A stretch of DNA of 64,000 nt from IMG/VR virus record IMGVR_UViG_3300025606_000003, positions 32,001 through 96,000 of that record; one strand, given 5' to 3'. Shown piece after piece: positions 3,613-36,028 of this stretch. Below the pieces are notes generated by a model. The model did not search any database. It saw only the letters and a list, made by a program, of their open reading frames with translations, and was not told where the DNA came from. The number at the start of each line of letters is the position of its first letter. The stretch's first letter is position 1. Made by a program: the position numbers and the translations under genes. Origin of the DNA: a virus (taxonomy: Duplodnaviria; Caudoviricetes).

Positions 3613-3639
3613 AGTGGTCACGTTAGCCGGCAACAAAAC

Positions 3640-4005: not shown

Positions 4006-4021
4006 GAATTTCTCCGTTTCT

Positions 4022-4405: not shown

Positions 4406-4428
4406 GGTGCCCTCCTTGGCACAGGGTT

Positions 4429-4461
4429 GGGAGGCGGGCGTTTACAACGCGCCCGCCTCCC
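4429..4461 (-). other. Strong stem-loop after the major capsid gene (mRNA stabiliser/attenuator)
   Basis: 12-bp IR gggaggcgggcg/cgcccgcctccc with no U-tract. Confidence 0.55.
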
Positions 4462-4479
4462 GTCCTCAGTTTAGAAACT

Positions 4480-5406: not shown

Positions 5407-5445
5407 TATGGAACCTCCATGTTCCGTGGGTGATTAGGGGTGGAC

Positions 5446-5994: not shown

Positions 5995-6058
5995 ATCAAG
6001 ACCTCCATGTCTTTCTTTGGTTTGAGGAACATCCTGTTCCTCGAGGACGAGTTGTAGC

Positions 6059-6487
6059 TCAGGTAGTGGGCGGATTCAGTCCAAGACCCTGGAACAACTT
6101 AATGTCCGAAGCCTTGAGGCGACCGTCGCGGGCACCCACATACCCGCTCGTCAAACTATTCGAAGGGTCGTAACCGGCGGTTTTAACAGCGGCTACCGGC
6201 GTACCTAAACGCGACAGCTCAGCCGCGTTGCGATGAGTCGCGAGCTTGATCACAAGCTCCATTGCCTGTACCGGGTTGCTAAGCGCGCGCGCAAGGGCTT
6301 CTTTCTGTTGCGGTTCAATGCGCTCATTCTCGACGCACGCCTTTACGGCGGCGGGAATCAAGCCGGCGAGCTTTTCAGCCTGCTCGTCGCGCTCTTTGAG
6401 AACAGTCGCTGCCTTGGTCAGCGCGGCGTCAGAGTAACCGATGTAATCGATTACTTTCTGCACGAGCGCGTTGTTGTTATCAGCCAT
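6059..6487 (-). CDS. Head assembly protein, hypothetical
   Basis: 142 aa helical, SD ggaggt; TKAAT, EKLAG, VKTAG. Confidence 0.55.
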   Translation of the reverse strand: MADNNNALVQKVIDYIGYSDAALTKAATVLKERDEQAEKLAGLIPAAVKACVENERIEPQQKEALARALSNPVQAMELVIKLATHRNAAELSRLGTPVAAVKTAGYDPSNSLTSGYVGARDGRLKASDIKLFQGLGLNPPTT

Positions 6488-6508
6488 GGTTAAAAACCTC
6501 CAGTGAAA

Positions 6509-7861: not shown

Positions 7862-7903
7862 GATCGTCTCCTTGAGGCCCGCGCGGCAGCGCGCGGATTT
7901 CAT

Positions 7904-9375: not shown

Positions 9376-10455
9376 TCAGCGGCCCGTCCCGCCCGTAGGC
9401 GGTCGCCAGGTATTGCCGGCCGGCCTTTTTGCCGGAGTTTCGAAAAACGACCCTGCGGCGTTGATCTGATCAGCAAAGCGTGTGCCGATACGGTTGCCGA
9501 GATTGCGCGAGGCTTGAAATACCGGCCGCGTGTATGGCGTGTGCCGGCGCTCAGCGTTCCACGTAGCTTTGGCCGCGTCTGAAATTACACCAGGCGCTTT
9601 TTCAACTGCGCTGTTAAGCGCATCCACACCCGCTAAAGCGCCGTCTGCCGTGTTTTTTGCGACAATGCCGGCGAGCTGCCCCGCAGTGCGGCCGGCGGTA
9701 AGCGTATTTTTTACACCAGTACTTGTAGCGTTAACGTACGGTGCAACTGCTGTGCCCACCGCGTCACCAATTTGTTTTACAGGCTCCGTGCTGTTTCGAT
9801 CAGCATTGATAATCGCTTTCAGCACGTCAGACCGCCCGTCCGGGGTTGAAAGCCCTCGTACCACTTCACCCGCCGGTGTTTTATCAAGCCCCTGCCAAGT
9901 GTAAGGATCTTGCACAGCCTCATACATACGCCGCGCGCTTTCAATCGGGTGATTCATCGCGACCATCACCTTGCGCCCGTAATCTGCGGTGCCCGCCGGG
10001 AGCCAGCCGGACTGGTTGCTATCGGGGTTCTTCGGCATGGACGGCCCAAACGTTTCTACAAATGCCGGATTATCCTCGCCGACCCGTTTTCCAAGACGCG
10101 ATAATTGATCTTGAACCATGCCGAGGACGCCACGGTTGTCGTCACCGGAGTCTTTTTTGTCGTGATTTTCTTGCATCCAATTAATCATTGGCGTCAGGCC
10201 CGCGCCACCGAGACCGCCCACCATGCCGTATGTCAGCGCATTGCGCAGCTTGTTGCGCCGTTGGACTAAACCAACAAGACCGCCGGCACCCGCGCCAATA
10301 AGCGCATTACGCGCGTACGGGTCGGCTAAATACTGCTGCAAGCGAGCGCCCAGTTGCGCTGTATCCAGTGCGCTTTTTTCGCTACCGGGTTGTTGACCGG
10401 TGACAGCGAAAACAGCCAGCGCGTGAGCAACTTTTTCCATTTCTTGCTTAGTCAT
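9376..10455 (-). CDS. Putative internal virion protein with glycine-zipper hairpin
   Basis: 359 aa; MEKVA, EKSA; ALIGAGAGGLVG-RRNKLRNAL-YGMVGGLGG. Confidence 0.55.
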   Translation of the reverse strand: MTKQEMEKVAHALAVFAVTGQQPGSEKSALDTAQLGARLQQYLADPYARNALIGAGAGGLVGLVQRRNKLRNALTYGMVGGLGGAGLTPMINWMQENHDKKDSGDDNRGVLGMVQDQLSRLGKRVGEDNPAFVETFGPSMPKNPDSNQSGWLPAGTADYGRKVMVAMNHPIESARRMYEAVQDPYTWQGLDKTPAGEVVRGLSTPDGRSDVLKAIINADRNSTEPVKQIGDAVGTAVAPYVNATSTGVKNTLTAGRTAGQLAGIVAKNTADGALAGVDALNSAVEKAPGVISDAAKATWNAERRHTPYTRPVFQASRNLGNRIGTRFADQINAAGSFFETPAKRPAGNTWRPPTGGTGR

Positions 10456-15868: not shown

Positions 15869-18280
15869 TTAGTTGTTAGCGACACTGGACAGGTCAACGT
15901 CGGAACCAGCCTCTTCCGGATACGGCTCGATGGTTTTCTGCTTGAGAAAGAGGATAACGTCACCGAGCATCTCAAAGGCGTTGCGTAGCGAGTCTTCCAG
16001 TTCCGGCATGTCAGACTTGCCGTAACGCTCGGCAAACTTGTCGCCGTGCCAGTAAAACATGAACAGAATGCGGCCAATCTTATCGAGACCTTTGGTCAAC
16101 TCACCCATGTACCGGTCGACCAGCGAGTCGTCGCGCACGGCGCGCAGCATGCTGCCGATCATCGCCGTATCAAACACTTCTTTCTGCCCGGACTGCGCAG
16201 CCTGCAGCACGTTGTTAATGTCATGCTTGTCAAGCTTGGTGTTGGGGTTGTAGATCTGCCGATCGGTCTTGGCAGCAGACACGCTCGGCACCGGCACGCC
16301 AACATCGATGCCCATCTGCGTAGGAATGTCCGCGCCCATGATGGTCTCGCCACCCATGATCGGGCCTGGGTCGCTCGGCGCGTTGGGCGCGTCGTTGACC
16401 ATCATCGGGGCGCCGTACGGATCGGCGTACTTCACGCGGCACTCAAATTTGCGCTTAGCGGCCGCCGCCTTGAGAATTTCGCGGGCTGCGCCTTCGCGAA
16501 GACCGTGCCGACCTACAAGCGAAATAAGCGCCTGCTTCTCCGACAGTTCTTTTTCAATTAAGCCAATATGTCCTGGCTGGTGCGAGCACATTTCAACTGC
16601 CGTACCGTTGTGATACACAGTCAGCGCCGCGGTCTTCTGCATCAGCGCCAATTGTGCGTCCACGATGTTGCCTGGCATCAGCGGCGGATCTTTGCTCTCA
16701 CCGCAGCCGCACACACCCTGATCGTCAGCGTCAGCCTCCGTTTTGTCGTCCTCGCCGGGCGCGCACTTGAGAGCTTTGAAGCTCTCCGGCACGAAGATGT
16801 CGCCCATCGAGCTGCGAAGGCTAGAGCCCTTCTTGCCGCCCAGATGAACGCGCACACCGTCGCGGTACTTGTCGTAGTTCAGTGGATCCGCGTAGCAGCA
16901 CGCCGAAATATGCCCCTTCGGCGGATACTTGGAGTAATCTTCAAGATGAACCTCGTAGCTAGTCGTACCGAATTCATCTTCGCCGAGCTCGCGCAGTACG
17001 CGCACCGGGCATGTCGCGTCGCCGTTCTTGCCAATCAGCATGGTGCGGGTGCGGCCGGTCGGAAGGCTGGTCGCGTCTTTCAGGCCGTTGAACCAGCTGT
17101 CAAACTCCTCGCCTTCGACCTGCGCAATGGCGAAAACCTGGTCGGCGCGGGTGTTCACCCAATCGGGTGTGCCCTCGGTGCGCACCACGGTGACAAAGTC
17201 CGCGCGCTTGGCGGCGCCCATCGGAAACACGGCGACATAGCAGCGCTCGATGTTGCCCGGCTTGACCAGAATGTCGTACAGACCAGAACAGGCCGGCGTG
17301 AAAAGTTTCTTCTCGACCTGAATCTGGTAGGGAATCGAGACGTTGTCGCGATCCCGCTGGTCGAGAATCAGCACGCCGTCGCGCAACAGCTTTTCCTGGT
17401 CTTCCTCGCTGTAACCGGCCGGCAGCTTTGTCTGCAGCGTGACGTCGAGCGTCACAATCTTGAGGCCGGCAACAGACGCCGGCTCTTTGGGCGCCTCCGA
17501 CAGCACACTGGCAATCTTCAGCTGCGCATCACGGGCCTTCGCCGCCGCAATCGCTTCCTTGATTACGCCCAGGCCGTGAAAGTTATCAAACGCCCTGGCG
17601 AGCGCCGGGGCGTCCTGGAACGTCTTCACGAGCATTTCGACCGTGGTCAGGCGGGCTTCCTTGAGAAACTGCGCCAGGTTGAGTTTCTGGCCCAGCTCAG
17701 CCAGCGTGGCGCCTGTGTTCAGCGTGGCGCACTTGGCCAGGGTCGGCATCACGGCCGTCATCATTTCCCGAAGCGTGGGCTTGGCCGAGCCGAACTTGGC
17801 CGGGCTGCGCGAAAGCTGTGTAAAGTCGGGCTGCCGCTGACCGAGCCCGGACAGATTCCGGTCAACGCTCGAGCCGAGAATATTTGGCTTCCGGTTGATC
17901 AGGTAATTGATCCAGTTTTCCTTGAGCGGCACGAACATGTCCTGGTTTTTGATGTACAGGAGCTCGTGACCTTTGAGGTCGCCGTTCAGGAAGAAAACAG
18001 GCGCGTACAGCCAGTTCGAGCCGACCTTGAAGGCAAAAACACCGACCGCCTTCGTGTTTTCACGGTTCCGGTCCAACAGCTGGAAGCCGACTTCATGATC
18101 CAGCAATTTCGGCGCCGAATCGCGGAGATACGCGTGCGCAAGATTGCTGAAAGCCTGCTCGAACGACGCGGAGTCGCCTTTGCCGCCAAAATCGGCCACC
18201 TTTGTCTGGGTCCGGTCGTGCGAACGGACCACAGTCAGCAGGTTCTTTAAGGACGATTCGGTATTCTTGCGGTTGTACAC
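15869..18280 (-). CDS. Large putative virion protein adjacent to the RNAP genes
   Basis: Start moved to GTG 18280 (SD ggaggt); about 803 aa; TKVAD, KIAS, KTAA, KYAD. Confidence 0.6.
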   Translation of the reverse strand: MYNRKNTESSLKNLLTVVRSHDRTQTKVADFGGKGDSASFEQAFSNLAHAYLRDSAPKLLDHEVGFQLLDRNRENTKAVGVFAFKVGSNWLYAPVFFLNGDLKGHELLYIKNQDMFVPLKENWINYLINRKPNILGSSVDRNLSGLGQRQPDFTQLSRSPAKFGSAKPTLREMMTAVMPTLAKCATLNTGATLAELGQKLNLAQFLKEARLTTVEMLVKTFQDAPALARAFDNFHGLGVIKEAIAAAKARDAQLKIASVLSEAPKEPASVAGLKIVTLDVTLQTKLPAGYSEEDQEKLLRDGVLILDQRDRDNVSIPYQIQVEKKLFTPACSGLYDILVKPGNIERCYVAVFPMGAAKRADFVTVVRTEGTPDWVNTRADQVFAIAQVEGEEFDSWFNGLKDATSLPTGRTRTMLIGKNGDATCPVRVLRELGEDEFGTTSYEVHLEDYSKYPPKGHISACCYADPLNYDKYRDGVRVHLGGKKGSSLRSSMGDIFVPESFKALKCAPGEDDKTEADADDQGVCGCGESKDPPLMPGNIVDAQLALMQKTAALTVYHNGTAVEMCSHQPGHIGLIEKELSEKQALISLVGRHGLREGAAREILKAAAAKRKFECRVKYADPYGAPMMVNDAPNAPSDPGPIMGGETIMGADIPTQMGIDVGVPVPSVSAAKTDRQIYNPNTKLDKHDINNVLQAAQSGQKEVFDTAMIGSMLRAVRDDSLVDRYMGELTKGLDKIGRILFMFYWHGDKFAERYGKSDMPELEDSLRNAFEMLGDVILFLKQKTIEPYPEEAGSDVDLSSVANN

Positions 18281-18367
18281 AGCCACCTCCGTGCGGCGTA
18301 GCGACAAATGACACTGATAACTCAACAATTTACCGTGTCTAAGCTCTTACATCCTACCGAAATGCGA

Positions 18368-20242
18368 TTATGGGCGCCATCCGCTTGTGGCGCCCGTTAC
18401 GCCAAACTGTTCGCCGCGAGCCAGCGCCGGCACAAAACTGCTGCCAGATGTGTCGCTAACTCCGCCGTGGTGTACGCTGTCGAGCAGGCCCTTTTGCTGG
18501 TAAGACCCGAGCATCCGCGTCATCCAGTCCTGGTCGTTTGAAATGTTACTCATGCCGCGAACCATTTCCGGCTGAAACGGCGGCGGCGTCCGGTGCGCTT
18601 CGATGTTATTGATTCCGTACTTCTGCAACGTATCGGTCACATTTTTGCCGATTTTTGTTCCAACAGAATAGTGCAGCACTGGGCGCTCTAAGTAATGCCC
18701 CGCCAGACTTTTTGGCGCGCCGGTCACGCTACCCGGCCGCGGCTGCCAATTTCGTTCAACCATCGAATACGGCACGATATCGTCGGGGTTGTAATCACCG
18801 TACTCGTCGGTCATTCGCACGTGGTTTACAAGCCCGCGCGCCAGCAGCTCGATATTGCGCCGCTGCGGCGTAATTCCTGAGTTCTGCATAACCTGCCGCA
18901 TAGCTGACACAAAATAGCGGCGCCCTTCGCCAACGCCCTTGTGCCGCACTATTTCGGCCGGACTGGGCATACCGTCTGACAGCACGTCGCCGGCTTCCAG
19001 CGAATCGCCTTTCTTCACGATGACTTGCCGGTCGGCCGGCACGTAATGGTCTTGGCTGTTGACCTGCACGTAAAACCCGCCCTGGGGCGCTGGTCGGATT
19101 TCTTGTACGTGCCCGTCAAACTGCGCATGTGTCGCGCCGTCCGGATATGTTTTCGGTACCTGCACAAGCGCATTGATCGCCTTAAAACCGGCGATTGAAC
19201 CGGCGCCGCCGACGCCGCCGGAGTGCTTAGAGCTAATCTGCGCCTGCGTCACGGGCTCACCTAACGCCTGCGCGGCCGCGATACCAACGTAATCGCCGAC
19301 AGGTGGTAATTTTCCTTTTTCCCGATAACCAACGTCACGCGCAAATACGCCGCCATCATCCGGGCCGCCCACCGTCGGACTGCGCACGAGAATATCTTTC
19401 ATGCCCATTTCTTTGATGTCGCGAAGAATCTTCGGCGTCAGCATCGTGTTGCGCTTGTACGGGCCGACCGGGCGCGCTAGCAGCGCGCCCTCGTTGTCAG
19501 AGTCGTCGACATCGGTCGGAAAGCCTCGGTCAACAGCGCCAGCTGCGCGCTCTTCGTCGTCATCGTCATCAGATGTAACTAGCAGCCGGTGCGTCATCTG
19601 TGAAAGCTGCTTGCTGAAAAACCCAGCGTCGGCGGTCGCTGTTTTTAGATCCATGACACCTTTACGCGTGCCGAAGGCGCCGGCGAAATATTCAACGGGC
19701 CGGAGCCCCTGACCGTAGCCGTGCAGCACCGGAATCGGAATCGGGTCGTTCTTGTGGTCGACATACTGCATGTCGGCCCCAATCAGCGAATTCAGGCTGA
19801 ACTTGTTGCCCTTGCCAACGCCGATGACCTGGTGCGCCAACGGGTTATCAAAACCTTTTGCTTCGTCGTAAACTTCGTTGACGAGCGAGCGCTGCGTGTC
19901 GCCGGCCAGCTTTAAAATTTTCAGTGTGCGCGCTTTTTCATCCAAGCTGCTGTCTGACAGAATTCCGCGCAGCTGCTGGTTAACTCTGTGTCGCGCGTTC
20001 TGGACCGCCACGGTGGCTTTGATATCTTTGAGACCGAACGACAAGCCGTTGGTGGTATAGCTGGCTTCGCGCCCCACGTCGTGCAACCGCTTCATCACGT
20101 CGCGGTATTTCTCGGGATATTTTTCAGCCAGCGTTGTCGCGAGCTGGGCCATATCTTTTTTTGTCAGCACGCGCTCGTAGTTGCGTAAGTCTTCTGGCAA
20201 CGCGGCGTTAATGAGTACTTGGCCGAGCGTAGTTTTCAGCAT
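18368..20242 (-). CDS. rpoC: DNA-directed RNA polymerase beta' subunit, C-terminal half
   Basis: TTLGQ start; GLRPVEYF..AFGTRKG...TADAGFFSKQL (bridge helix); GDYVGIAAAQALGEPVTQ..SKHSGG (trigger loop); RNIELLAR. Confidence 0.9.
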   Translation of the reverse strand: MLKTTLGQVLINAALPEDLRNYERVLTKKDMAQLATTLAEKYPEKYRDVMKRLHDVGREASYTTNGLSFGLKDIKATVAVQNARHRVNQQLRGILSDSSLDEKARTLKILKLAGDTQRSLVNEVYDEAKGFDNPLAHQVIGVGKGNKFSLNSLIGADMQYVDHKNDPIPIPVLHGYGQGLRPVEYFAGAFGTRKGVMDLKTATADAGFFSKQLSQMTHRLLVTSDDDDDEERAAGAVDRGFPTDVDDSDNEGALLARPVGPYKRNTMLTPKILRDIKEMGMKDILVRSPTVGGPDDGGVFARDVGYREKGKLPPVGDYVGIAAAQALGEPVTQAQISSKHSGGVGGAGSIAGFKAINALVQVPKTYPDGATHAQFDGHVQEIRPAPQGGFYVQVNSQDHYVPADRQVIVKKGDSLEAGDVLSDGMPSPAEIVRHKGVGEGRRYFVSAMRQVMQNSGITPQRRNIELLARGLVNHVRMTDEYGDYNPDDIVPYSMVERNWQPRPGSVTGAPKSLAGHYLERPVLHYSVGTKIGKNVTDTLQKYGINNIEAHRTPPPFQPEMVRGMSNISNDQDWMTRMLGSYQQKGLLDSVHHGGVSDTSGSSFVPALARGEQFGVTGATSGWRP

Positions 20243-20243
20243 G

Positions 20244-20483
20244 TTACGGCGTCCAAATCAGATTTTGCATCGGCTTTGGCTGTACTTCTGTAACTGCTAC
20301 GGTTTTGTTGACGCCCGCGGCCCGCAACAGCGCATGAAAGTCTTTTTCTCGGGCGTCGGCATACACGATCGATTCGTCAAGCTGCAGCGCTACAAAAATA
20401 GGGTTGCCCAGCGCGTCCTCGATGACGACGCTGTGCGCTGACTGTTCATGCGGCTGTAGGTTGTGCTGCAGTTTAACGCGCAC
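20244..20483 (-). CDS. Small hypothetical protein between the RNAP genes
   Basis: 79 aa, SD aggag, abuts rpoC-C. Confidence 0.55.
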   Translation of the reverse strand: MRVKLQHNLQPHEQSAHSVVIEDALGNPIFVALQLDESIVYADAREKDFHALLRAAGVNKTVAVTEVQPKPMQNLIWTP

Positions 20484-21156
20484 GCCCCAAGCTCCTGCGC
20501 AAAACAGACAACGCCGCAGCCTTCAACTGCAGCTCAGACGGCGCATCAGGATCGGGCAGCTCGGCGGTAACTTGCTCCCACCACGCCTGCTTGCCAGCGT
20601 TCGGGTCCATTGGCATTTGACTCGGATCCTGGGGGCCACCCGGCGGCATTGGGCCGCCCGGCGGCTGCGGACCGCCAGCGGCATTCGGGTCTTGTGGGGG
20701 CGGCGGCGCCATAGGGCCACCAGGCAGCGCCGACTCGGCCGGCGGTGCGCCGTTAGAGCCTGGCGGCAGCACTAACGTAGCAGGGTCTACCTGCACGCCC
20801 ATCGCGTTCATGATCGCCGTGAGTTGCTGTTGCATGTTATACAGCCGGAAATCGATCATCTGCATCATTTGCTCGGGCTTCATCTTCTGCCCTTGCGCGG
20901 CGCCGGGCGGCGCAGCGGGCGCCGGAGCCGGCATCGGAGCGGGAGCCGGCGGCATCGCAGCAGCGCCGGCGCCGGTCGGATCTTGAGCAGCTGGCGGCGG
21001 TGCGGCACCCATAGCAGCTTGCGCCGGATCGACCGGCGGCGCAGCGCCCATTTGGGATGGATCCGGCTGCATGCCCATCATCGCAGCTTCAGACGGCACC
21101 ACAGCCGACTTTTCGAACGTGGCGCGGGCCATCTTCATCAATTCACGATTGACCAT
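20473..21156 (-). CDS. Pro/Met/Gln-rich low-complexity protein
   Basis: 227 aa, SD ggaggt; MKMAR, EKSAV, GKQAW, LKAAA. Confidence 0.6.
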   Translation of the reverse strand: MVNRELMKMARATFEKSAVVPSEAAMMGMQPDPSQMGAAPPVDPAQAAMGAAPPPAAQDPTGAGAAAMPPAPAPMPAPAPAAPPGAAQGQKMKPEQMMQMIDFRLYNMQQQLTAIMNAMGVQVDPATLVLPPGSNGAPPAESALPGGPMAPPPPQDPNAAGGPQPPGGPMPPGGPQDPSQMPMDPNAGKQAWWEQVTAELPDPDAPSELQLKAAALSVLRRSLGRAR

Positions 21157-21174
21157 GGACGTAAACCTCCGTGT

Positions 21175-24100
21175 TTAACTTTCGACGATGTGCACCGGGG
21201 AGTCGACGTCAAGTTCGCCCCGGCGGTAAGCGTTAATTGCGTCCTGCGTGCTGCGATATACCCTGGGCTTAGCTTTTTTATCGATGCGGCTCGAGGCAAG
21301 ATACACACCGGTCTGATAGTCCGCGTTCGGCACGTAATGCGCCTTGAAGTTGGATGTTGCAAAAAGGTTTTTGCTGGGAAGCATCTTTTCGACTGCTTCT
21401 TTTGCAGCGTCTTCTGTGCTGGGAACGTGATATTGCATCGCGTCTCCGTCAAAGTCGGCACCAAAACCTTTTGTAATGACCGGATTAACCTCCATGACCT
21501 TGTTTTTTGTAAGCTTTGGATAGAACGCCATCATACCGTATCGGTGCAGAACCGGCGCACGGTTGATAACGATAGGCCGAGACGACATCTGGGTCTCCAG
21601 CTCTGCCATCGCCTGTTTATTGCGGTCTTCGACAGCCTGCAGCGCCTGCATGCGCGGTAACCCGCGGCGCACTAGCCCGCGCACAACAAACGGCTTGTAA
21701 ACGGCCCAGGCCTTGTCTTCGGGCAGCGCGACCTCGTCCATGTTCAGGTCTGGGTTCGGCGTGATCACCGCCCGGCCCACAAGGTCAACCGTGGTGCTGA
21801 GCAACTTACGCTGCACGGTGCCGTATTTGGGCGAAGAGCCAAAAATATGGGACAAGAAGCCTTTCACGCGGCGTTCCTGGTTTTTTGGCTGCGTCGGATC
21901 GCCGAGCCCGGTCACGGCTTTCATAGTGTCGTACAGCGCCAGCCGTTCGTCGCCATAGCTTTCAAGCGCACCAGATGCCTCTTTCAAAGTGCTGTTGGCG
22001 TCCAGCAGTTCTTTGTAGAGATAGTTCGCATCGGCAACCAGGGGCAGTTTTTTATTACCCATTGTGCTGACCGGCCGGAAGAGCGGCGGCAGGACGGGCA
22101 TTTTTGTCAGCATCCAATCTTTGGGATGCACGCCGGTCTGCTCTGCGTTCTTCAAGTATCCCAACTTGCGCACCGCAGCGTCGCGCAGGGTCTTCCGGCC
22201 GGACTTGATATCTTCGCGCACCTGCTCGAGCATTTTTGGCAGGTTAATCCGAGATAGCGCGTTTTGAATCGCTTTGGGCCCAGTCTCGTCGTGGATCTTG
22301 GCTTCGCCTGCGAGCACGTTCCGGTACTCTTTTTCAGTCAGCCCAAGCACGCGACGAATAGGCTCTTCCATGACCGGATTCGGCATCGGTTCGTGCAAAG
22401 ATATCTTTGCCCACCGGTTGCCGCCGTGGCCGCCCGTAAGTTTTTCGTCGAAGAGGCCGCCAGCAATCGGCTTCAATCGGCCCTTCCAGTCGACGGTTTC
22501 AGAATTCTCGATTTCGCGACCGCCCGCCATGTCATCGACGTCTTTGTCGGTCAACGCCATGATGTGCGTCTGGCTGCCAGTGCGCACGGTGTTAATACCG
22601 GCGCCCTTCAGCTGGTTAACGAACTTTTCGTAGACGTGTGGCACCTTGGGCAACGGCGGAGTGTATCCGGCCATAAATTGCGACCAGTACTCTGGGTTTG
22701 CTTGGCCGCGCACCATCTTGGCGTCCCGGATTACTTTTCCAGCGCCGTGCGACAGTAACGCGCCAAGATCCAACATTCCGACGCGTTTAGCACCTTCGCT
22801 GCCGCCCTTGGCCGGAGTGCCTTCGGCTGTGTAACTACCCATCGCGCGGCCTTGCCCTTTGCCTTCGGCCGTGTGGTGCAGCTTCATAAAGAACCGGGAA
22901 CCGGTCAGCACGCCTTTGATCTTACGACCGGTTTCCGGATCAACTACGTCCTCGGTATCAGAGAGGCCGTGCTTCCCAAGCTCTTTTTGAGCGAAATCAA
23001 CAAGATCAACACTGCCGTCAAAGTCTTTGAGTTTGAACGGCTGACCCGTTTTGGCTGCAACTTTTCCAAGCGCGGCCTCGATCACCTGCGCGGGATTCAC
23101 GCGGCTGATAAGTCCAAGCGGGCTGACCAGCACTTCATACGGACTGCCGTCTTTATCGTGCGGCATCTGATGGTCAGGCACAATATCGGCAACAACGCCT
23201 TTGTCGCCGTATCGCCCGGTCAGCTTATCGCCAACCTGCATTTCCGCCTGTGTTTTTACGACGACCTGCACACCCTTGTTGGTATGCGCAACGTCGGTCA
23301 CGATACCGGGCGAATGATGATCCCAGGTTTCCGACTCGTTTGAGAAGTTGCCGGCACGCCCGCGGTGCACTTTGCCGTACGTTGTTTCTTTGGCCTTGGC
23401 GTGCAGGATTAGCGGATCACCGAACTGCACAACGGCGCCCTTCTTGATCGCGCCTTTGTCGTCAAAGTTATCAAGCTGCTTTTTGTCGTACTCGCCGGGA
23501 AACAACGCAATAAATGCTTTCTTGCCAGCGTGGCTCGAGTCTGTCCATTCGGCGGCATGCTGATACATGTGCTCGCTGGTCAGCTTGCGCGCTGTGCTTT
23601 GACTGATCACAACCGCGTCTTCGTAGTTCTTGCCGTGATACGGCAAATACGCCACGCGCAAATTTTTACCCAGCGCTGCAGAACCGGCCGGATCTGTAAA
23701 GTTTGAGTGCGCCAGCAGCTGCCCCGGTTGAATAACGTCGCCAGGCTGCACCGTCGGTGTTTGATGCCAAAACGTTTTCCGATTGAACGGGTGCTCGTTA
23801 TACAGATCAATATCGTGTTTGTTGCCGTCGCGATCGCGCAGCACCATTTTGCCAGGTTCAGTTGAAACAACTTGCCCGTGAAATTGCGCGCGTACAGCGC
23901 CCAGCTGCTCGCCCATTTCATCTTCGTGCGACGTGCCGTCTTTGCCGATAATAGCTGACTGCACGTGTGGCGCTTCAGGTCCAACCAGCGGCAGCGCTTG
24001 CGTGAACATGCGGCTCGCCATGATCACGCGGTGGCCCTTCATGTAAGACTTCATCGGCACCATGTTAGACAGCGCCGAAAACGTGTTGTCCATGTGCGGC

Positions 24101-26583
24101 AGGCTGTACTGTACTTGCTCGCGCGGCATGTACTTCATCTTGCCGTTGACCATCGCGGCAATCATGGGCAGCGTGCTTTTTTCTTCGCCCGGAAACGCCA
24201 GCGGCAATTCAGCCAGCTCGCCGGGTGTTTTGTACGTTGTCTCGCCTGTGCGCGTGTCAATTACGGGTGTGTAGATTTTGCCATCAGCGCCTTTGCGCGC
24301 GCCACGAGCAAAGCGCATGTCGACACCGACTTTTCCGCTGTTGCCGCACCAAAAACCGCAGCCGCCTTTTCGGCGCACGTAAAGCAGGCCGCCGGGCACG
24401 GTCGCGCAATACACCAGGCCGTCGTACTGTTGCCGGAAATAATGGCATTCGCCCTTGGGCGTATTCGGCAGCACTTGATGGCTAGTCTGTTTGTGTACGT
24501 GCACGACCCAGCAGCCGCCGACCGCTGCGTGAGGGCGCTTGTCGCGCTCGAACACGACTTTGCATGAATAACCCAGCCCAAAAGCCAGCCGCTCAAAATC
24601 AAGCGCGAGCTGGTGGCTGGCAGTGCAAAAACAAGTTCTTTCGCCGCGCTTGTTCTTGCGCCCTTCACTTTTCATCAGCGCGTCAAACAACCGAAAGCGG
24701 GCAGAAACCGGCGCATCCAAGAACTCTTCTGGGATCCAGCGGCCCGGGCTGCCGTGGAATTGCTTGAAATACGCCGCAACTTGTTTTGTCGCGATCGAAA
24801 ACGCCTTGCCGTGATAACCCCACTTAAACGGCAAGCGGCTCAACAACGCGCGGATTTGGTCGCAGTTTTCCGGATTGTGCTTTTGGCACTGCGTGATCTT
24901 AATCTGAAATTGCGACTTCTCCGGGCGATACACGCAGCTGCCCTCGCCCAAATACCAGCCGAGCAGTTCTGCCCAATCGTCCAACAAAACGTTGCCGACG
25001 ACAACCCGGTTATTGCTCTCGTAAACCGGCGCCGGAATGCTAAACACGGCGGCAGAAACGCCGCTGTACGGGTCAAAACCGGCAGAAAGAACACCGCGAA
25101 ACTTCAAGTGTGTCGTTTCGGCGGATTCGATTTTGTACGGCGCGCCTTCGTAAAGCGAGCGCACATACATCCGGTGATTCGGCGTCACAAGATAGTTAAT
25201 CTTGCCGGTAGCAGCGCCGTACATTTCGCCGACGTAGCGCGATTCGTGCAACTTTTCTGCCTTGTGGAACTCGAGCTGCCCGGCGACCAGGCAGGCAAAC
25301 TCGTCTCGCTCGGTGACGTCTGGCCACTTTTTCCAGCCACCGCGCGTCATAACCTCGGTTTGACTGTCGTAGCACTCGGGCGTGCGCAAGAAATCCACAA
25401 AACCAAGATGACTCGGCTGTACGCTGCGCGATTCTTGCGGCACGGCGTCAAGCGACCCGATGCCGCCTTCGCCCATGCGGGTCACGCGGGATTGATGATC
25501 GAAAATCTCGGCCGGATTGATTTCTTCAAGCGAGCTGCCCAACCCAGAGCCAATCAACGCAGCGCTGATGCCCTTGTTGAACACGCCAGTCGGAAGCCGA
25601 TCAAGATTTTTCTTGGCGGTTGCTTTCCAGAGAATCTGCCGCAACGTCTGCCGATCTTTTGTAAACCGCTCGGCGATCAAATCTTCCGGACCCACAACAG
25701 ATTGGTACGCCATGGCGTCGCGATCGTCCGGGTCGGCTTCTTTGCGATTGAGCGCGATGAGCTTCTTAGTGATCGCCAGAATTGCGTCCGGCGTAAGATT
25801 TTTGTATTCAGCGCCGAGCGTGCGCCGCGTGACATCTGGATCCATTTCCATGCGCGCAAATTCGTCGGCGATGGCTTTTTGTTTGCCGGCCGCGTCAATG
25901 CCCGGCACTGGTTTGTACACAAGTCGCTGGTACAGTTTGTCTAACGTGCCCGCGTCGCCTTTCTGCATATTGACGGCTGTAATGTCGTTGCCCCACGCAG
26001 CACGAATATCCTGATCGTGCGCGCCCATGGCTTTCAACAATGGCAACAGCGGAATTTTGGCCTGCCCAATATTGATGTTGAGCACGCCGGTTTTTGGATC
26101 CAAAAAGTAACGGTGCATGCGTCCTTTGCCAGGAAGCACATTGACGTGGGCTTCCAGCTCGCCGTTATCTTTTTCACGGGTGTAGACGCCGGGCTTCAGC
26201 CGCATCTGGTGTGCCAGCGTGTATTCAACACCGCGGTTCACAAACGTGCCAGAATCCGTGAGATACGGCACATGCGCCAGTGTTGTTTGCCGGCGGGCGA
26301 TTGGCTGGCCCGTCACATTGTCGGTAAGCGACCACGTGCCGGTCATACGCCGGTGCATAGAGTTACCGGTCAAAATAGCCGTCTTTTGATCAGCCTTGGT
26401 AAAACGCTCCGGCCCCGTGTACTTCACATCATGAAGCTGGAGCGTATAGAGATCGTTTTTAACCGGCTCAAGCGACGACGCACTGCGGAGCGCGCTGTCA
26501 AAGATGTTGTTACGCAGCGAACTGATGTCGCCAAACGCGCGCATTTGCGGCGCCGGAGAACCTGGAAGCATCGAGTCTGGCAT
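21175..26583 (-). CDS. rpoB: RNA polymerase beta subunit fused to the catalytic beta' N-terminal half, intein-containing
   Basis: Beta motifs GTFVNRGVE, RTPE/SGKVG, GKNYEDA, GDKLTGRYGDKG, MKLHH, PHVYEKFVNQLKGAGIN; then beta' motifs GGLFD, PKDWMLTKMPVLPP, NRAPVLH, GADFDGD (DFDGD at 21442-21456). Confidence 0.92.
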   Translation of the reverse strand: MPDSMLPGSPAPQMRAFGDISSLRNNIFDSALRSASSLEPVKNDLYTLQLHDVKYTGPERFTKADQKTAILTGNSMHRRMTGTWSLTDNVTGQPIARRQTTLAHVPYLTDSGTFVNRGVEYTLAHQMRLKPGVYTREKDNGELEAHVNVLPGKGRMHRYFLDPKTGVLNINIGQAKIPLLPLLKAMGAHDQDIRAAWGNDITAVNMQKGDAGTLDKLYQRLVYKPVPGIDAAGKQKAIADEFARMEMDPDVTRRTLGAEYKNLTPDAILAITKKLIALNRKEADPDDRDAMAYQSVVGPEDLIAERFTKDRQTLRQILWKATAKKNLDRLPTGVFNKGISAALIGSGLGSSLEEINPAEIFDHQSRVTRMGEGGIGSLDAVPQESRSVQPSHLGFVDFLRTPECYDSQTEVMTRGGWKKWPDVTERDEFACLVAGQLEFHKAEKLHESRYVGEMYGAATGKINYLVTPNHRMYVRSLYEGAPYKIESAETTHLKFRGVLSAGFDPYSGVSAAVFSIPAPVYESNNRVVVGNVLLDDWAELLGWYLGEGSCVYRPEKSQFQIKITQCQKHNPENCDQIRALLSRLPFKWGYHGKAFSIATKQVAAYFKQFHGSPGRWIPEEFLDAPVSARFRLFDALMKSEGRKNKRGERTCFCTASHQLALDFERLAFGLGYSCKVVFERDKRPHAAVGGCWVVHVHKQTSHQVLPNTPKGECHYFRQQYDGLVYCATVPGGLLYVRRKGGCGFWCGNSGKVGVDMRFARGARKGADGKIYTPVIDTRTGETTYKTPGELAELPLAFPGEEKSTLPMIAAMVNGKMKYMPREQVQYSLPHMDNTFSALSNMVPMKSYMKGHRVIMASRMFTQALPLVGPEAPHVQSAIIGKDGTSHEDEMGEQLGAVRAQFHGQVVSTEPGKMVLRDRDGNKHDIDLYNEHPFNRKTFWHQTPTVQPGDVIQPGQLLAHSNFTDPAGSAALGKNLRVAYLPYHGKNYEDAVVISQSTARKLTSEHMYQHAAEWTDSSHAGKKAFIALFPGEYDKKQLDNFDDKGAIKKGAVVQFGDPLILHAKAKETTYGKVHRGRAGNFSNESETWDHHSPGIVTDVAHTNKGVQVVVKTQAEMQVGDKLTGRYGDKGVVADIVPDHQMPHDKDGSPYEVLVSPLGLISRVNPAQVIEAALGKVAAKTGQPFKLKDFDGSVDLVDFAQKELGKHGLSDTEDVVDPETGRKIKGVLTGSRFFMKLHHTAEGKGQGRAMGSYTAEGTPAKGGSEGAKRVGMLDLGALLSHGAGKVIRDAKMVRGQANPEYWSQFMAGYTPPLPKVPHVYEKFVNQLKGAGINTVRTGSQTHIMALTDKDVDDMAGGREIENSETVDWKGRLKPIAGGLFDEKLTGGHGGNRWAKISLHEPMPNPVMEEPIRRVLGLTEKEYRNVLAGEAKIHDETGPKAIQNALSRINLPKMLEQVREDIKSGRKTLRDAAVRKLGYLKNAEQTGVHPKDWMLTKMPVLPPLFRPVSTMGNKKLPLVADANYLYKELLDANSTLKEASGALESYGDERLALYDTMKAVTGLGDPTQPKNQERRVKGFLSHIFGSSPKYGTVQRKLLSTTVDLVGRAVITPNPDLNMDEVALPEDKAWAVYKPFVVRGLVRRGLPRMQALQAVEDRNKQAMAELETQMSSRPIVINRAPVLHRYGMMAFYPKLTKNKVMEVNPVITKGFGADFDGDAMQYHVPSTEDAAKEAVEKMLPSKNLFATSNFKAHYVPNADYQTGVYLASSRIDKKAKPRVYRSTQDAINAYRRGELDVDSPVHIVES
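24340..25374 (-). mobile_element. Intein with LAGLIDADG-type homing endonuclease (345 aa)
   Basis: Starts CYDSQTEV after RTPE; TPNHRM block B; LLGWYLGEG and LFDALMKSEG; VYCATVP block F; ends WCGN|S. Removal restores TPESGKVG. Confidence 0.9.
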
Positions 26584-26588
26584 GTCGA

Positions 26589-27422
26589 TTACTCATGTGT
26601 CGGCTGCGTGGCCATCTGCTTAATCTGCGCCAGCTGATCGGGATCAACGTACACGTCAGGCAATCCGCGCATCCGCGCTCGGCTAGCCCGCGCCTTCGCA
26701 ACGTTTTCGCCGCGCGTGCGCTCTGCTGTGCGATCGTACATGTACTTTCCGCCAACACCGGCAGCGGCAAGAGACGCCAGTACTTGCGTCGTCGCGACGC
26801 CGTGCGGCACGGTGTTGGTCAAAAAGTTCCACGGCACGCTGAGCACGTCTGTAATGCTCGGCGCGGCCCACTTTTCATATACGGCGTCAAGCGCGGCCGC
26901 AGACTTGTCTTGTCCGCTGAGAATGGCGTAATAGCGCTGGCGTTCTTTTTCAACCTCATCCTTGGCTTCTTGCTTGTCTTTGTGCTTCACAATGGAATTG
27001 ACCAGCGCCCCACCACCTAAAACGCCGCCGCCCAAAGCGCCAAAATTCATCGCCGTACCGAAAGCGTCCCGATACAGGTTGGGCATATACGAGCCAAGTT
27101 CGTCGCCCGACCGCAACCCAACCGGGCTAAAGATCGTGTCGGAAATACGCCCCGGAACAGAGCCAATCAAACTGGCGATATTGTTGTAAACGTTTTCAGT
27201 AGTTGAGCTAGCCGTCTTGACGTCTGGGGCCGCAAGCGTGGGTGCACCCGGGGCAAAATCCTGATAGCTAGTTTCTTTCTTGTTGGCCGGCTTCAACGCT
27301 CGAATAAGCTGCCACAGCGCCATACCGCCGACGCCGACACCAGCGCCGGTCGCCAGGTTTGTCAAAACCTGTTTGCCTAATGCGGCCTCGTCAAACGCAG
27401 CTGTTTTGTTTGCTGTAGTCAT
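26589..27422 (-). CDS. Putative internal virion protein with glycine-zipper hydrophobic segments
   Basis: About 277 aa from ATG 27422; NKTAA, VKTAS, DKSAA, EKWAA; GAGVGVGG and GALGGGVLGGG. Confidence 0.6.
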   Translation of the reverse strand: MTTANKTAAFDEAALGKQVLTNLATGAGVGVGGMALWQLIRALKPANKKETSYQDFAPGAPTLAAPDVKTASSTTENVYNNIASLIGSVPGRISDTIFSPVGLRSGDELGSYMPNLYRDAFGTAMNFGALGGGVLGGGALVNSIVKHKDKQEAKDEVEKERQRYYAILSGQDKSAAALDAVYEKWAAPSITDVLSVPWNFLTNTVPHGVATTQVLASLAAAGVGGKYMYDRTAERTRGENVAKARASRARMRGLPDVYVDPDQLAQIKQMATQPTHE

Positions 27423-27427
27423 AGTTG

Positions 27428-27775
27428 TCACTTTGGCGGCAGCATTCCGTACACCTGAAACCATTCCAGCCAGGCGCGGTAATGTTTTTTTTCTTCATCC
27501 CAGTTGTCATTACGACGCACAAGCCTGTACCAGCCATTGACTATTTTATCATTCACGTCGTCAAACTCGGCTTTTTGGGCGTCGTCCCAAAGCTCAAACA
27601 TTTTTGACTTAAAGTCCAGCCGAAGATCGAGATTATCAAGCTCGGCCTGCTTGAGATCGGGCTGGGGGCCCGGGCGTTTCAGCACAGGGAAGCCGTCTGG
27701 CGTACCGGGCCAATTCAACTGCGCGCCGCCGTGCGCCGGGCCGCCTAATTCACCGTAGTACTTGTGCATGCTCAT
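27428..27775 (-). CDS. Hypothetical protein
   Basis: 115 aa, globular-looking. Confidence 0.6.
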   Translation of the reverse strand: MSMHKYYGELGGPAHGGAQLNWPGTPDGFPVLKRPGPQPDLKQAELDNLDLRLDFKSKMFELWDDAQKAEFDDVNDKIVNGWYRLVRRNDNWDEEKKHYRAWLEWFQVYGMLPPK

Positions 27776-27785
27776 AATTTACGCC

Positions 27786-28160
27786 TTACATGGCAGATCG
27801 GTACTGCTTCGACTTCCTGTGCGCTTGCAGCCGGTCGGCGTAAACGCGGTACGTGTGCGCCAGCTCTTGAGCTTTCACCTGATCTTCGTCAATTTTTGGC
27901 TCGAGCATCTTTGCCGCACCCCAACCCCCCGCGGCGCCGGCAGTTAAACCTCCAGCGACGGGCAACCAGTACAGCGCGTTCATTGCGGACGGCGCAAATT
28001 TACTGGTAGTACTCATCGCAGCCCGTAGTGTTGCCAACGCCGTAAGCGGATTGACAGCGACTTTTTCAAGCCGGGCTGTTAACTGGTCGCCTGTAAGGCG
28101 CTCTTCCGCACACCGAGTCAAAAAACCTAACTTGAAAGCTTCTTTAGCGGCGTCAGACAT
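27786..28160 (-). CDS. Putative virion protein with hydrophobic Gly-rich segment
   Basis: 124 aa; AFKLGF, LEKVA, GGLTAGAAGGWG. Confidence 0.6.
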   Translation of the reverse strand: MSDAAKEAFKLGFLTRCAEERLTGDQLTARLEKVAVNPLTALATLRAAMSTTSKFAPSAMNALYWLPVAGGLTAGAAGGWGAAKMLEPKIDEDQVKAQELAHTYRVYADRLQAHRKSKQYRSAM

Positions 28161-31416: not shown

Positions 31417-32229
31417 TCACGTTTTAGGAACGAGAATGTACGGCTTGCCATTGATAACGATTGTGCCGCCCAAATGCACTGACGCGTCGCTAGTCATCGG
31501 CAACGGGTTTTTACGCTTGCCATACAGCTCCACGATTTCCCGCACATCGCCAGCCTGCGGCTCAGTGACATTCGGGTCGTAATACGGCGCCATCAGGTTG
31601 CCCTTCGCTAAATGCGGCAGGCCCAACGCGTGACCCAGCTCGTGGCAAATCACAGCCACGGCCATGTTGAAGCTCCAGTCCTCGGCTTCATCAAACATTT
31701 GATCAAGCTGGATGCGCTCGTGCACGTCGCAAGGCAGCTCGCTCCACGCCAGCGTGCCGCCACGGTCATCCAGGCCGGCTTTTCGGCCTTTACCTGACCT
31801 GGCCAGAATATTGGCCTGCTCAGCCACGTCAGCGCGTTTGGGCTCGATGTCGCACACCGCCGCCCACTGCGAGAACGCAATGTCGTAGGCTTGCCGGGCC
31901 TGTTCTACTGAAATGCCCGGCAGCTGGATGTTCGGGAAGTACGTGATGTTCTTGTGCGGCCACCGACACGTCGAGTCGGCCGCCGAAAAATTGAAATCTG
32001 GCAGACCGCAGCGGCGCCTAGCCATCACGCTGGCGGTTGTCACGCCAACGGTACCGTCCGGCTCAATGCCGTGAAAGCGCTGATATTCGCGAATTGCGCG
32101 AGTCAGTTCAGCGCCTTTGATCCCTTTAACCTGGTTCCAGGTCTTTGCGCCGAAATAGCCGAAACCGTAAAGTTTCTGCAGAATTTCGCGGGTGGGGATG
32201 ACGTGTGAATTAGATGGCATCCTTGCCAT
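31417..32229 (-). CDS. Matrixin (M10) metalloprotease with PG-binding-like prodomain and cysteine switch
   Basis: AIREYQRFHGIEPDG; RRCGLPD; HELGHALGLPH; Met-turn LMAPYY. Confidence 0.85.
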   Translation of the reverse strand: MARMPSNSHVIPTREILQKLYGFGYFGAKTWNQVKGIKGAELTRAIREYQRFHGIEPDGTVGVTTASVMARRRCGLPDFNFSAADSTCRWPHKNITYFPNIQLPGISVEQARQAYDIAFSQWAAVCDIEPKRADVAEQANILARSGKGRKAGLDDRGGTLAWSELPCDVHERIQLDQMFDEAEDWSFNMAVAVICHELGHALGLPHLAKGNLMAPYYDPNVTEPQAGDVREIVELYGKRKNPLPMTSDASVHLGGTIVINGKPYILVPKT

Positions 32230-32266
32230 AATTTCGCATCCTTGCGAGTAATGCGGTTGTGAGCAA

Positions 32267-32683
32267 TCAGCCGTCGAGCGGTTTGTTGCGCTCGGCCAGC
32301 CACAGCAGCTCGTCAATTGCAGCGTCGTCCGCGCTGTCACTGAGCTCGTAAACGGCTTCCAGCAGCGGGTTGCGCGCAGCAAAAAGAGTATCGTCCGCGC
32401 ACGTATTGCGCCAGAGGTCTTTCAATTTTCTGCGCAGCCGAATCAGCTTGCGCGCTGGCAGTGCCCGCAGCTCGCGCATGTCTAGCCGCAACTCGTCAGT
32501 GTTGCGGTGCTCGCGGCAGTACGTGAGTACCTGAATCAGCACAGAAATCAACGAGATAATCAGCAGCGGACTGAACTGAATAGATTTGTCCATGCGAAAA
32601 CTCACCTCGGACTGCAGCTGGTTTTGCAGCTGCGCGAGCGCTGGTGAATTCTCGAGCCGCTCTTTCAGTTCTGCTTCAGTCAT
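32267..32683 (-). CDS. Membrane protein, hypothetical
   Basis: Start ATG 32683; single TM FSPLLIISLISVLIQVL. Confidence 0.55.
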   Translation of the reverse strand: MTEAELKERLENSPALAQLQNQLQSEVSFRMDKSIQFSPLLIISLISVLIQVLTYCREHRNTDELRLDMRELRALPARKLIRLRRKLKDLWRNTCADDTLFAARNPLLEAVYELSDSADDAAIDELLWLAERNKPLDG

Positions 32684-34484: not shown

Positions 34485-35858
34485 TTAGCGCCTCCATCGT
34501 GGCAACGACGCGAGCGCGCCGTCACCGTAACGTTCGAACAACTGGTCTTGCAAACTCGGCTGCGGTAGCTCTCCGCGGAAAGCTTTCAGCGCCATTTGAT
34601 AACGGTAATTTGGATCCAGCTGCGCGCGCCAAATGTCATGATTGCGGCGTGTTTGCAGCATGAAATCGCCGCGGCGTTTGACCTCAGCCAGCTGGTTTTG
34701 AATATTCTCAAACACAGGCTTAGCGTGATCATACGGAATGATGTTGTTCACAGCCGCCGGGTTGAACATCTGCATCGCCTGATTGAGATAAACGCTGCCA
34801 GCTTTTTTGACGCCGGGCGGAATCGCAGTCGGGTGCACATGAAACCGAAACTTTGTTGGGCTGTGCGTAACGCCCTTGTACTTTGGCGTGTCGTCGTCGA
34901 TCTGCCAATCGTCCGGTTTTTCTGTCATCAACTGCCGCAAAATATTGTTCTTGTGCTCGTAGCGTTTGTTGTCGGAATGCTTTTTAGCCTCGTGCAGTCG
35001 CGACAACGTAGCAGCGGCAGCAAACTTTTCTACGGTTTCGATTTTTTGGTAGTCGCGCGGGTCTTCGGACAGGTGATCCTTGGCAATTTCTTTGGCGATT
35101 TGGTCATTGGCGGTGTGTTCGCACTCATGCTGTTGTCCTTCGGTCGTCGTCTTCGGGGGAAACTTGCTGTCCAATACGTGGTCTGCCGCAACGCCGGGCA
35201 AAATATCTTTGACGGCTGCCGCTTTTAGCTCGCCGCGAGTACTACCTTGCACGGGCATTGCATCTTCTTCTTCGGCGTGCGTCACCCGGCTCACCGAGTT
35301 ATTGCGCAGCACATTGCGGCGGCGGACTGCCACTGTAATGTGAAACTGGTGGTCCTCATTAGGCAGCGGCGACAGGCCGTAACTTTTGCGCAGCGCCGCA
35401 AGCTCAGGACTGGCCGCCTGGATCGCCCAAACGCGGTTCAGACCATTACTGTCAGGCGTGAACTCGCGAACTTGGCCCAGCGCATAATGAAAATGGTGCC
35501 CGCGCTCGCTAATCTTGTCCGGCCCGATTTTTTCAACCTCGTCGCCGGTCATGACCGTAATGTGCGCGTTGAGCACGTCTTTGTCGCCCGGCTCGCCTTG
35601 AAATGCGCTTAACGTTGGCAGCTCTGCGCCAGGCGCTGTCATGGCGTCAAATACGCCGCGCACAAGCGCATTGGGCACGGATAACAACAACCAGCCGCTT
35701 TTTGACAAGTACAGCCGGCCAGACAGATAGTGGTTTACGCCCACGGCAGCCCCGGTTTTGGACAACCAGGCCGCGGCGTTCCCGATCGTATACGCCGGGT
35801 GTAACTTCAGGCTGGCCGGATCCCAAGCCAGCGAATCAAGAATAGAAAGCCCATCCAT
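34485..35858 (-). CDS. Modular protein: 2H phosphoesterase domain + DUF5661-like domain + others
   Basis: Start ATG 35858; two H-x-T motifs (AHITV, FHITV); ECEHT..IAKEIAKDHLSEDPRDY; domains separated by KTGAA, LKAAA, EKFAA, KKAG. Confidence 0.7.
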   Translation of the reverse strand: MDGLSILDSLAWDPASLKLHPAYTIGNAAAWLSKTGAAVGVNHYLSGRLYLSKSGWLLLSVPNALVRGVFDAMTAPGAELPTLSAFQGEPGDKDVLNAHITVMTGDEVEKIGPDKISERGHHFHYALGQVREFTPDSNGLNRVWAIQAASPELAALRKSYGLSPLPNEDHQFHITVAVRRRNVLRNNSVSRVTHAEEEDAMPVQGSTRGELKAAAVKDILPGVAADHVLDSKFPPKTTTEGQQHECEHTANDQIAKEIAKDHLSEDPRDYQKIETVEKFAAAATLSRLHEAKKHSDNKRYEHKNNILRQLMTEKPDDWQIDDDTPKYKGVTHSPTKFRFHVHPTAIPPGVKKAGSVYLNQAMQMFNPAAVNNIIPYDHAKPVFENIQNQLAEVKRRGDFMLQTRRNHDIWRAQLDPNYRYQMALKAFRGELPQPSLQDQLFERYGDGALASLPRWRR

Positions 35859-35875
35859 GCCGTTGCCTTTCTGGC

Positions 35876-36028
35876 TTACGGCGCTTGATGCAGCTCGCCA
35901 GCTGCGGCAGCGTGCACCCGGGCCGAGGTCGCCACCGATGCGGCAGACGAAAAGAGCGCCAAACCGCTCATAAACGCCGCCACCCACGCCACCGCGCTCA
36001 ACGTATAACGAAGTTTACGCTCAATCAT
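35876..36028 (-). CDS. Small TM protein following the holin
   Basis: 50 aa from ATG 36028 (SD aaggag); MIERKLRY plus a hydrophobic helix. Confidence 0.5.
   Translation of the reverse strand: MIERKLRYTLSAVAWVAAFMSGLALFSSAASVATSARVHAAAAGELHQAP

Follow-up and report, generated by a model that had tools for sequence, protein, structure and literature searches.

In a 64,000-nucleotide stretch of viral DNA (the window; bases 32001-96000 of the 107-kb linear IMG/VR virus contig IMGVR_UViG_3300025606_000003), positions 18368-26583 were found to be filled by four closely packed minus-strand genes with open reading frames (ORFs) of 1802, 227, 79 and 624 amino acids (aa), the outer two of which encode a bacterial-type multisubunit RNA polymerase made of a beta-beta'N fusion and a separate beta'C chain. 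At the level of sequence, the architecture of both chains, an insertion in the fork region of beta, the absence of several elements present in the E. coli enzyme and the presence of one polymerase set were established. Taken together with predicted splicing, sigma docking and packaging, these features make it likely that this is the single two-chain RNA polymerase of a freshwater tailed phage with a genome of about 200 kb. A preliminary description of the locus had proposed such a re-partitioned polymerase, and the proposal was upheld by 21 relatives, more than 120 protein clusters and the phages Arash and D181. It had missed a 345-aa intein, the 227-aa and 79-aa genes, a sigma-like gene outside the window and the loss of zinc sites and cysteines.

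The first chain is encoded by a single ORF at 21175-26583 (minus strand, as are all features of the locus given below), whose 1802-aa product comprises beta, the intein and the N-terminal half of beta' through the catalytic motif GADFDGD. Pfam domains occurred in the order Rpb2_2, Rpb2_3 and Rpb2_6 (beta; E = 3.6e-50 for Rpb2_6), followed by Rpb1_1 and Rpb1_2 (beta' N-half). This order, together with the alignment to E. coli RpoB and RpoC by which all residue landmarks were placed, bore out the earlier observation that one ORF runs from beta motifs through the DFDGD motif of beta'. The C-terminus of beta, previously put at about 22580, was recognized as GAGINTV at 22585-22605. A 7-aa linker (RTGSQTH, 22564-22584) follows at the beta-beta' junction, taking the place of ~4 residues at the end of beta and ~15 at the start of beta', and beta' then begins with IMALTDKDV (22537-22563), at about E. 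coli beta' residue 16. In place of the N-terminal zinc-binding domain of beta' there is a 15-residue loop, LTGGHGGNRWAKISL (22396-22440), and the zinc ligands C70, C72, C85 and C88 of E. coli are all absent. The coiled coil of the beta' clamp helices (21901-22029, aligned with E. coli beta' ~262-309), which is the docking site of sigma region 2, was kept. The chain passes through the lid, clamp helices, rudder, switch 2 and GADFDGD (21442-21462; the NADFDGD motif of the beta' double-psi barrel) and ends ~90 residues past the latter. On the beta side, the Lys motif of the double-psi barrel (GRYGDKGVV) aligned with E. coli RHGNKGV and the ED motif (NYEDAVV) with NFEDS, while SI1 and SI2 were missing relative to E. 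coli. The rifampicin pocket differed from that of E. coli by Q513S, D516E, S531T, L533M and I572D, with H526 and R529 kept, and these substitutions make insensitivity of the phage enzyme to rifampicin plausible.

The 1802-aa ORF is not colinear with the mature chain, as precursor residues 404-748 (24340-25374) form a 345-aa LAGLIDADG intein that appears as an in-frame insertion relative to intein-less alleles; the predicted mature chain is therefore 1457 aa long. The N-extein, beta residues 1-403 (25375-26583), ends at the fork motif LRTPE (E. coli beta E565), and the insertion point between RTPE and SGKVG, which corresponds to E565/G566 in the fork region of E. coli beta, was exact against nine intein-less sequences. 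The insertion contained Cys1, a block B TPNH (T64-P-N-H67), the two LAGLIDADG motifs LLGWYLGEGS and LFDALMKSEGR, the block F motif VYCATVPGG and a C-terminal Gly-Asn (N345) followed by Ser at +1. C1, TPxH, VYCATV, GN, N345 and S+1 were invariant in 20 homologues (25-46% identity over the full length), which were located in split beta fragments of other phages, either at the identical position or 16 residues further upstream, as well as in ThyX and a C1 peptidase. A single-sequence AlphaFold2 (AF2) prediction was poor (predicted local distance difference test score, pLDDT, 39.5), and an alignment-based AF2 model (pLDDT 92.8) was used instead; its top Foldseek matches were the TliVMA, PhoVMA, PI-PfuI and PI-SceI inteins (E = 9e-16, probability 1.0). 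Look-alikes in the ESM Atlas bore LAGLIDADG_3, Hom_end and Intein_splicing domains, and a PDB sequence search with the intein returned nothing relevant. On the evidence of its motifs and modelled fold, the insertion is a class 1 intein, with a Hint fold into which a LAGLIDADG domain is inserted. The element was present at the same site in 8 of ~120 close alleles, and this patchy presence, together with the conservation of both LAGLIDADG acidic residues (GEG, SEG), would fit an active element. No intein-skipping joint was seen in contigs from four sequencing runs, a result that is uninformative on polymorphism as contigs drop rare variants. The intein would self-splice through Cys1, Asn345 and Ser+1 to give a 1457-aa beta-beta'N chain, which would pair with beta'C as the catalytic core.

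Inteins were also found at other catalytic positions in the family. About 40% of the beta'C proteins of relatives (P0153-P0302) carried inteins at the bridge helix (residues ~199-210), the trigger loop (~337) or both, as supported by Hint and LAGLIDADG matches, and in one relative an intein adjoined GADFDGD. LAGLIDADG inteins of eukaryotic and giant-virus RPB2-type subunits likewise occupy highly conserved sites near the active centre, and two of these, Bde RPB2-c and Ddi RPC2-a, are located in the fork domain (Goodwin et al. 2006, PMC1635734). The intein described here resembles them in its LAGLIDADG domain and in its position in the fork, with sites compared at the domain level, but it resides in a phage bacterial-type beta, ends in Gly-Asn and has relatives in ThyX and a C1 peptidase. 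An intein reported in a preprint on S. aureus jumbo phages lies in gyrase A and not in a polymerase.

The second chain, encoded at 18368-20242 and identified by the Pfam domain Rpb1_5, is the 624-aa C-terminal half of beta'. It starts with MLKTTLGQ, aligned to LKDTTVGR (residues 569-576; TTVGR 572-576) of E. coli, and contains the rim helices, bridge helix, trigger loop and C-terminal clamp part of beta'. In agreement with the earlier proposal that the bridge helix and trigger loop lie in a second gene beginning at TTLGQ, these elements were aligned with E. coli at 19574-19708 and 19151-19288, respectively; the trigger loop keeps its His and lacks SI3. At the second beta' zinc site (19550-19573 and 19328-19372), all four Cys positions are occupied by other residues in the window lineage, and the whole chain is free of Cys. 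Two conserved genes lie between the polymerase genes. The first (20473-21156) is found in relatives and encodes a Cys-free 227-aa protein, rich in Pro, Ala, Met and Gln, whose helical core is conserved (KPEQMMQMIDFRLYNMQQQLTAIMNAMGV; consensus of relatives, QKLKPEQMMQMLDYRLYNMQQQL). The second (20244-20483) encodes 79 aa and ends 1 nt before the start codon of beta'C. Neither ORF had a Pfam match or a usable ESM Atlas match, and that the 79-aa protein is a small polymerase-associated subunit is a guess.

The same layout was recovered in all 21 IMG/VR relatives (beta'C 64-82% identical), each of which encodes, in the same order, a 1457-1483-aa fusion, a 219-261-aa ORF and a beta'C of ~626 aa. 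More than 120 protein clusters at 78-90% identity carried PF00562 and PF00623 on one chain. Among cultured phages, the domain split was shared by Salmonella phage Arash (OQ632216; PMC10585845; gp206, 1525 aa, and gp216, 606 aa), and the Vibrio phages D69, D148 and D181 aligned across the beta-beta' junction. In an 11-row beta' tree that included four bacterial beta' sequences and the unsplit beta' of phages Va2 and RHph_TM30 as outsiders, the window clade, Arash and D181 were grouped with 100/100 support, so that common descent of the three enzymes is supported within this small sample with long branches. A survey of split points, which had been suggested earlier, gave a uniform answer for beta': all 150 best 50%-identity beta'C representatives (46-57% identical) shared one start residue, and the cut in beta' is therefore a family invariant. 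On this sequence evidence, the two-chain layout is standard in a large phage family, as the preliminary description had allowed, which lowers its rarity; our literature searches found no paper describing a beta-beta'N chain combined with beta'C.

The beta end of the fusion was far more variable. Proteins bearing beta'N all ended at the invariant beta' cut, and their starts fell at beta residue 1 (window clade and Arash) or at extein residues 486, 549, 639, 661, 741, ~795, ~920 and 997. The ~795 and ~920 classes comprised many clusters on contigs of 213-238 kb, and a start at 997, a rare form, coincides exactly with the N-terminus of beta', which is then unfused. In D181, where this region spans 3370-8884, a further cut divides beta between a 515-aa protein and a 1006-aa betaC-beta'N protein, and the gap holds a free-standing gene annotated as a homing endonuclease; a second homing endonuclease gene is located close by. 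As beta is cut at many positions in the family, the presence of both double-psi barrels in one chain, noted previously, holds for the window clade and Arash and is a clade trait rather than a family trait. The link of the end of beta to beta'N is nearly constant. About 60% of the beta'C representatives also carried a variable, low-complexity C-terminal extension of 300-1100 residues rich in Ala, Pro, Gly and Gln. Some of these extensions hold an SNF2 module (fused to beta'C in the relative P0239) or a 2H-SAK/DUF5661 module, both of which the phage of the window encodes as separate proteins (52652-57034 and 34485-35987, respectively).

The preliminary description had stated that no alpha, omega or sigma gene is recognizable in the window. 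This holds for the window itself; the enzyme is nevertheless not sigma-less, as a gene for a 282-aa sigma-like protein was found on the minus strand ~15 kb outside (genome positions 16480-17328, locus L024 1456-2304). The protein matched Sigma70_r3 with 27.7 bits (Pfam cut-off 25.3) and region 4 weakly (18.7 bits), and a region-2-like stretch was readable by eye, with no Pfam Sigma70_r2 match in the phage genome. Identity to its counterparts in relatives was 68-73%, and both gp10 of Arash, which carries a sigma-factor annotation, and a D181 gene are homologues. An ESMFold2 complex of beta'N residues 1380-1720 with the sigma-like protein scored 0.50 against 0.00 for the best control and was rated 'weak support', with at least 26% agreement between runs and a partner pLDDT of 55 or more. 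Of 80 solved complexes, 58 attained the mark for this rating, as did 2 of 110 mismatched pairs; scores of 0.60 or less were seen in only 7 of the 80 solved complexes and in both passing mismatched pairs. Since sigma-beta' complexes have already been solved, the pass may reflect memorization by the model or likeness only. The sigma-like protein would dock on the retained clamp helices and flap and set promoter choice. The window genome, three relatives of 82-98% completeness and Arash gave no match to alpha (PF01193) and no credible homologue of omega. A 16-bit match to omega (PF01192) just outside the window had no counterpart in relatives and was put down to chance. The window genome, the relatives and Arash each contained a single polymerase set. 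The covalent beta-beta' link could take over part of the role of the alpha dimer in assembly.

Both zinc sites of beta' are gone in the window lineage, and the mature enzyme of 2081 aa (1457 + 624) contains not a single Cys, compared with 13 in the intein. Most other genes of the genome encode 1-5% Cys. Besides the two polymerase chains, the proteins with no Cys were the 227-aa protein, a 1460-aa helicase and proteins of 1199, 614, 552 and 509 aa, and the sigma-like protein has one Cys in its 282 residues. By Cys count, large-protein genes of this kind lie at 52652-57034, 59082-60611, 60670-62514, 9376-10455 and 26589-27464 in the window and at genome positions 20263-23862 and 17295-18953 outside it. 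The Cys-free set may correspond to the proteins ejected with the DNA.

We regard a packaged and ejected polymerase as the best reading of these data and, on balance, a probable one, because of the proteomics of Arash, the position of the genes in the structural module, the Cys-free set and the fusions of beta'C to modules of injected type. In mass spectrometry of Arash virions, gp206 had the highest spectral counts of all proteins, and gp216, the sigma factor gp10 and the helicase gp217 were also present (PMC10585845). The SNF2 and 2H domains are typical of injected 'polyvalent proteins' (PMC5512222), and the C-terminal fusions of beta'C to SNF2 and 2H-SAK/DUF5661 in relatives therefore involve modules of this type. 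The core enzyme, sigma and the SNF2 helicase would be packaged, delivered with the DNA and transcribe the early genes, and a zinc-free and Cys-free make-up would suit passage through the tail and the periplasm. Several points weigh against this reading and its parts. The association of the Cys-free make-up with ejection is a correlation, and the Arash chains are only 25-33% identical to those of the window. The Arash virion preparation also contained ribonucleotide reductases and other metabolic enzymes (PMC10585845), so that carry-over of abundant proteins is possible. The penultimate residue of the intein is Gly and not the usual His, and splicing is a prediction. The sigma-like protein passes the Pfam cut-off for region 3 only, and the negative Pfam results for alpha and omega are compatible with divergent analogues or with use of host alpha. 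CheckV completeness of the source record is ~52%, although near-complete relatives (96-98%) gave the same alpha and omega result.

An alternative is that the re-partitioned polymerase is not packaged but made after infection for middle and late genes, with the host polymerase reading the early genes. The polymerase gene lies within a late-type structural module and is therefore probably expressed late, the Arash virion preparation held many non-structural enzymes, and phages that encode sigma-like factors mostly rely on the core enzyme of the host. However, spectra of gp206 exceeded those of the capsid protein in Arash virions, each genome has a single polymerase set, and late expression is equally what a packaged enzyme needs. 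The Cys- and zinc-free make-up, moreover, is common to the helicase and other large proteins, and beta'C is fused to injected-type modules in relatives; we therefore consider a non-packaged enzyme rather unlikely. A hybrid enzyme, in which the phage chains would combine with host alpha and perhaps omega, would account for the lack of a recognizable phage alpha or omega and for the broadly alignable alpha-contacting regions of beta and beta', and it is in line with the established knowledge that bacterial beta-beta' fusions, both artificial and natural, still use alpha. Against this, a packaged enzyme acting right after injection would first have to find host alpha, and the phiKZ/AR9-type and crAss-type phage polymerases described in the literature function without alpha, which leaves the hybrid improbable. 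That faulty assembly or sequencing, the latter raised in the preliminary description with regard to the fusion, produced the join or the long insertion, or that the DNA is mis-binned bacterial DNA, is hardly conceivable. The record is a single, incomplete metagenomic contig; yet more than 140 independent sequences and four cultured phages show the layout, the contig bears phage capsid and tail genes, and the intein is in frame, has canonical boundary residues, occupies the same site in eight alleles and is under conservation. Per-run contigs from four freshwater runs, three of which may be the source of the DNA, also reproduced 21900-25500 with zero differences.

Among known systems, Arash is the closest match. 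Like the window phage, it has the beta-beta'N fusion, a sigma factor (gp10) and polymerase genes within the structural module, and Arash and D181 both agree with it in the position of the junction and in the beta' split point, lack the N-terminal zinc-binding domain and encode homologous sigma-like proteins. They differ from the window lineage in keeping the four Cys of the second zinc site. In Arash, nine genes and no intein were found between and within the polymerase genes, compared with two small genes and an intein in the window, and the gp217 helicase gene adjoins that of beta'C. In the Arash paper, the chains are called simply beta and beta', and neither a fusion nor a split is mentioned (PMC10585845). 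The mReC phages have separate genes for beta (~1100-1500 aa) and beta' (~900-2000 aa) that are distant on the contig, and a T4-type capsid (Weinheimer & Aylward 2020, PMC7481178). They and the phages RHph_TM30 and Va2 resemble the window phage as tailed phages, many of them from freshwater, with recognizably bacterial-type beta and beta'; in Rhizobium phage RHph_TM30 and Vibrio phage Va2, however, beta' is unsplit and unfused and falls outside the split clade. Membership of the window phage in mReC was rejected, as this group is defined by separate genes of at least 800 aa and a PF07068 capsid, whereas the window has the fusion, a 624-aa beta'C and a 308-aa capsid protein with neither PF07068 nor any other Pfam match. 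A comparison of the metagenome identifiers of six relatives with the tables of the paper gave only an unrelated contig from a shared sample (3300012000). In the phiKZ/AR9-type enzymes of jumbo phages, alpha and omega are absent, beta' is divided between a barrel-bearing N-part and a C-part, and one of the forms is a virion component (PMC7824862). They are far more divergent from the bacterial enzymes and comprise two sets (virion and non-virion), with both beta and beta' split, no beta-beta' fusion and no sigma; the single set, the fusion and the sigma-like gene of the window phage rule out membership in this type.

Full rpoB-rpoC fusions occur in Helicobacter and Wolbachia, and in cyanobacteria and plastids beta' is cut after the catalytic barrel to give RpoC1 and RpoC2. 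In contrast to both, the window polymerase has the join and the cut together, and its chain boundaries are therefore shifted, not added or removed. The usual view of multisubunit RNA polymerases assigns them fixed subunit boundaries, an obligatory alpha-dimer scaffold and structural zinc. If our reading is true, an enzyme closely related to that of bacteria may function even with its boundaries displaced by half a subunit, with no recognizable alpha or omega and with neither zinc nor any Cys, and would then provide a natural minimal enzyme for assembly studies and a candidate rifampicin-insensitive and redox-insensitive transcription tool. More tentatively, the family as a whole, an abundant one, could share an ejected early-transcription kit, consisting of an alpha-less, zinc- and Cys-free two-chain polymerase, sigma and an SNF2 motor, in which the beta-beta' link would replace the alpha platform and boundaries would have been redrawn by inteins and homing endonucleases at catalytic motifs. 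The variable beta cuts and the inteins at the fork, DFDGD, bridge helix and trigger loop would then be a living record of mobile elements reshaping an essential enzyme. With Arash as a cultured member whose chains are found in virions, these ideas are directly testable.

The genomic setting is that of a large tailed phage. The sequencing runs matching the stretch were freshwater metagenomes, complete genomes of relatives measure ~200-210 kb, and the minus strand carries nearly every gene of the contig. The major capsid protein (308 aa; 4480-5406, minus strand) is a homologue of Arash gp226 (tblastn, 27% identity over 309 aa, E = 5e-26), and its gene marks the structural module that includes the polymerase genes. 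The ORF at 7904-9364 matched Arash gp222 and the 819-aa ORF after beta'C weakly matched gp218, so that the gene order of the window, with homologues of gp218, gp222 and the capsid protein gp226, parallels the Arash structural module. The SNF2-type helicase (1460 aa, no Cys; 52652-57034, minus strand) has a core homologous to Arash gp217 and was the only one of ten large neighbouring ORFs to be named by PHROGs; Pfam gave names to few others. An Rfam scan of the window found no RNA family, and a scan of 18000-27800 for sigma-70 promoter and terminator consensus sequences showed no enrichment relative to shuffles.

An AT-rich motif, AAAGATATCT, which is the core of CAAAGATATCTt, occurred 14 times in the window compared with 0.02 copies expected. 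The motif is partly palindromic and includes GATATC, and its sites include 846, 1527, 11501, 15520, 22397, 37578, 44980, 53790 and 57036. The copies are mainly intragenic, in differing frames and with unrelated flanks, and one lies ~30 nt upstream of the helicase start. The over-represented CAAAGATATCT motif could be a promoter or another recognition site. Other minus-strand genes of the window encode a protein with PG_binding_1 and matrixin (M10) peptidase domains (31417-32382), the 2H-SAK and DUF5661 protein (34485-35987), a protein with glycosyltransferase matches in both halves (41418-43502; Mannosyl_trans3 and, more weakly, GT8/GT34) and PhoH (45243-45959). Finally, a 343-aa protein (38677-39708, minus strand) gave a full-length match to the actin-like protein Volactin (PF25216, E = 1e-61), an actin-type cytoskeletal protein in a phage of ~200 kb.

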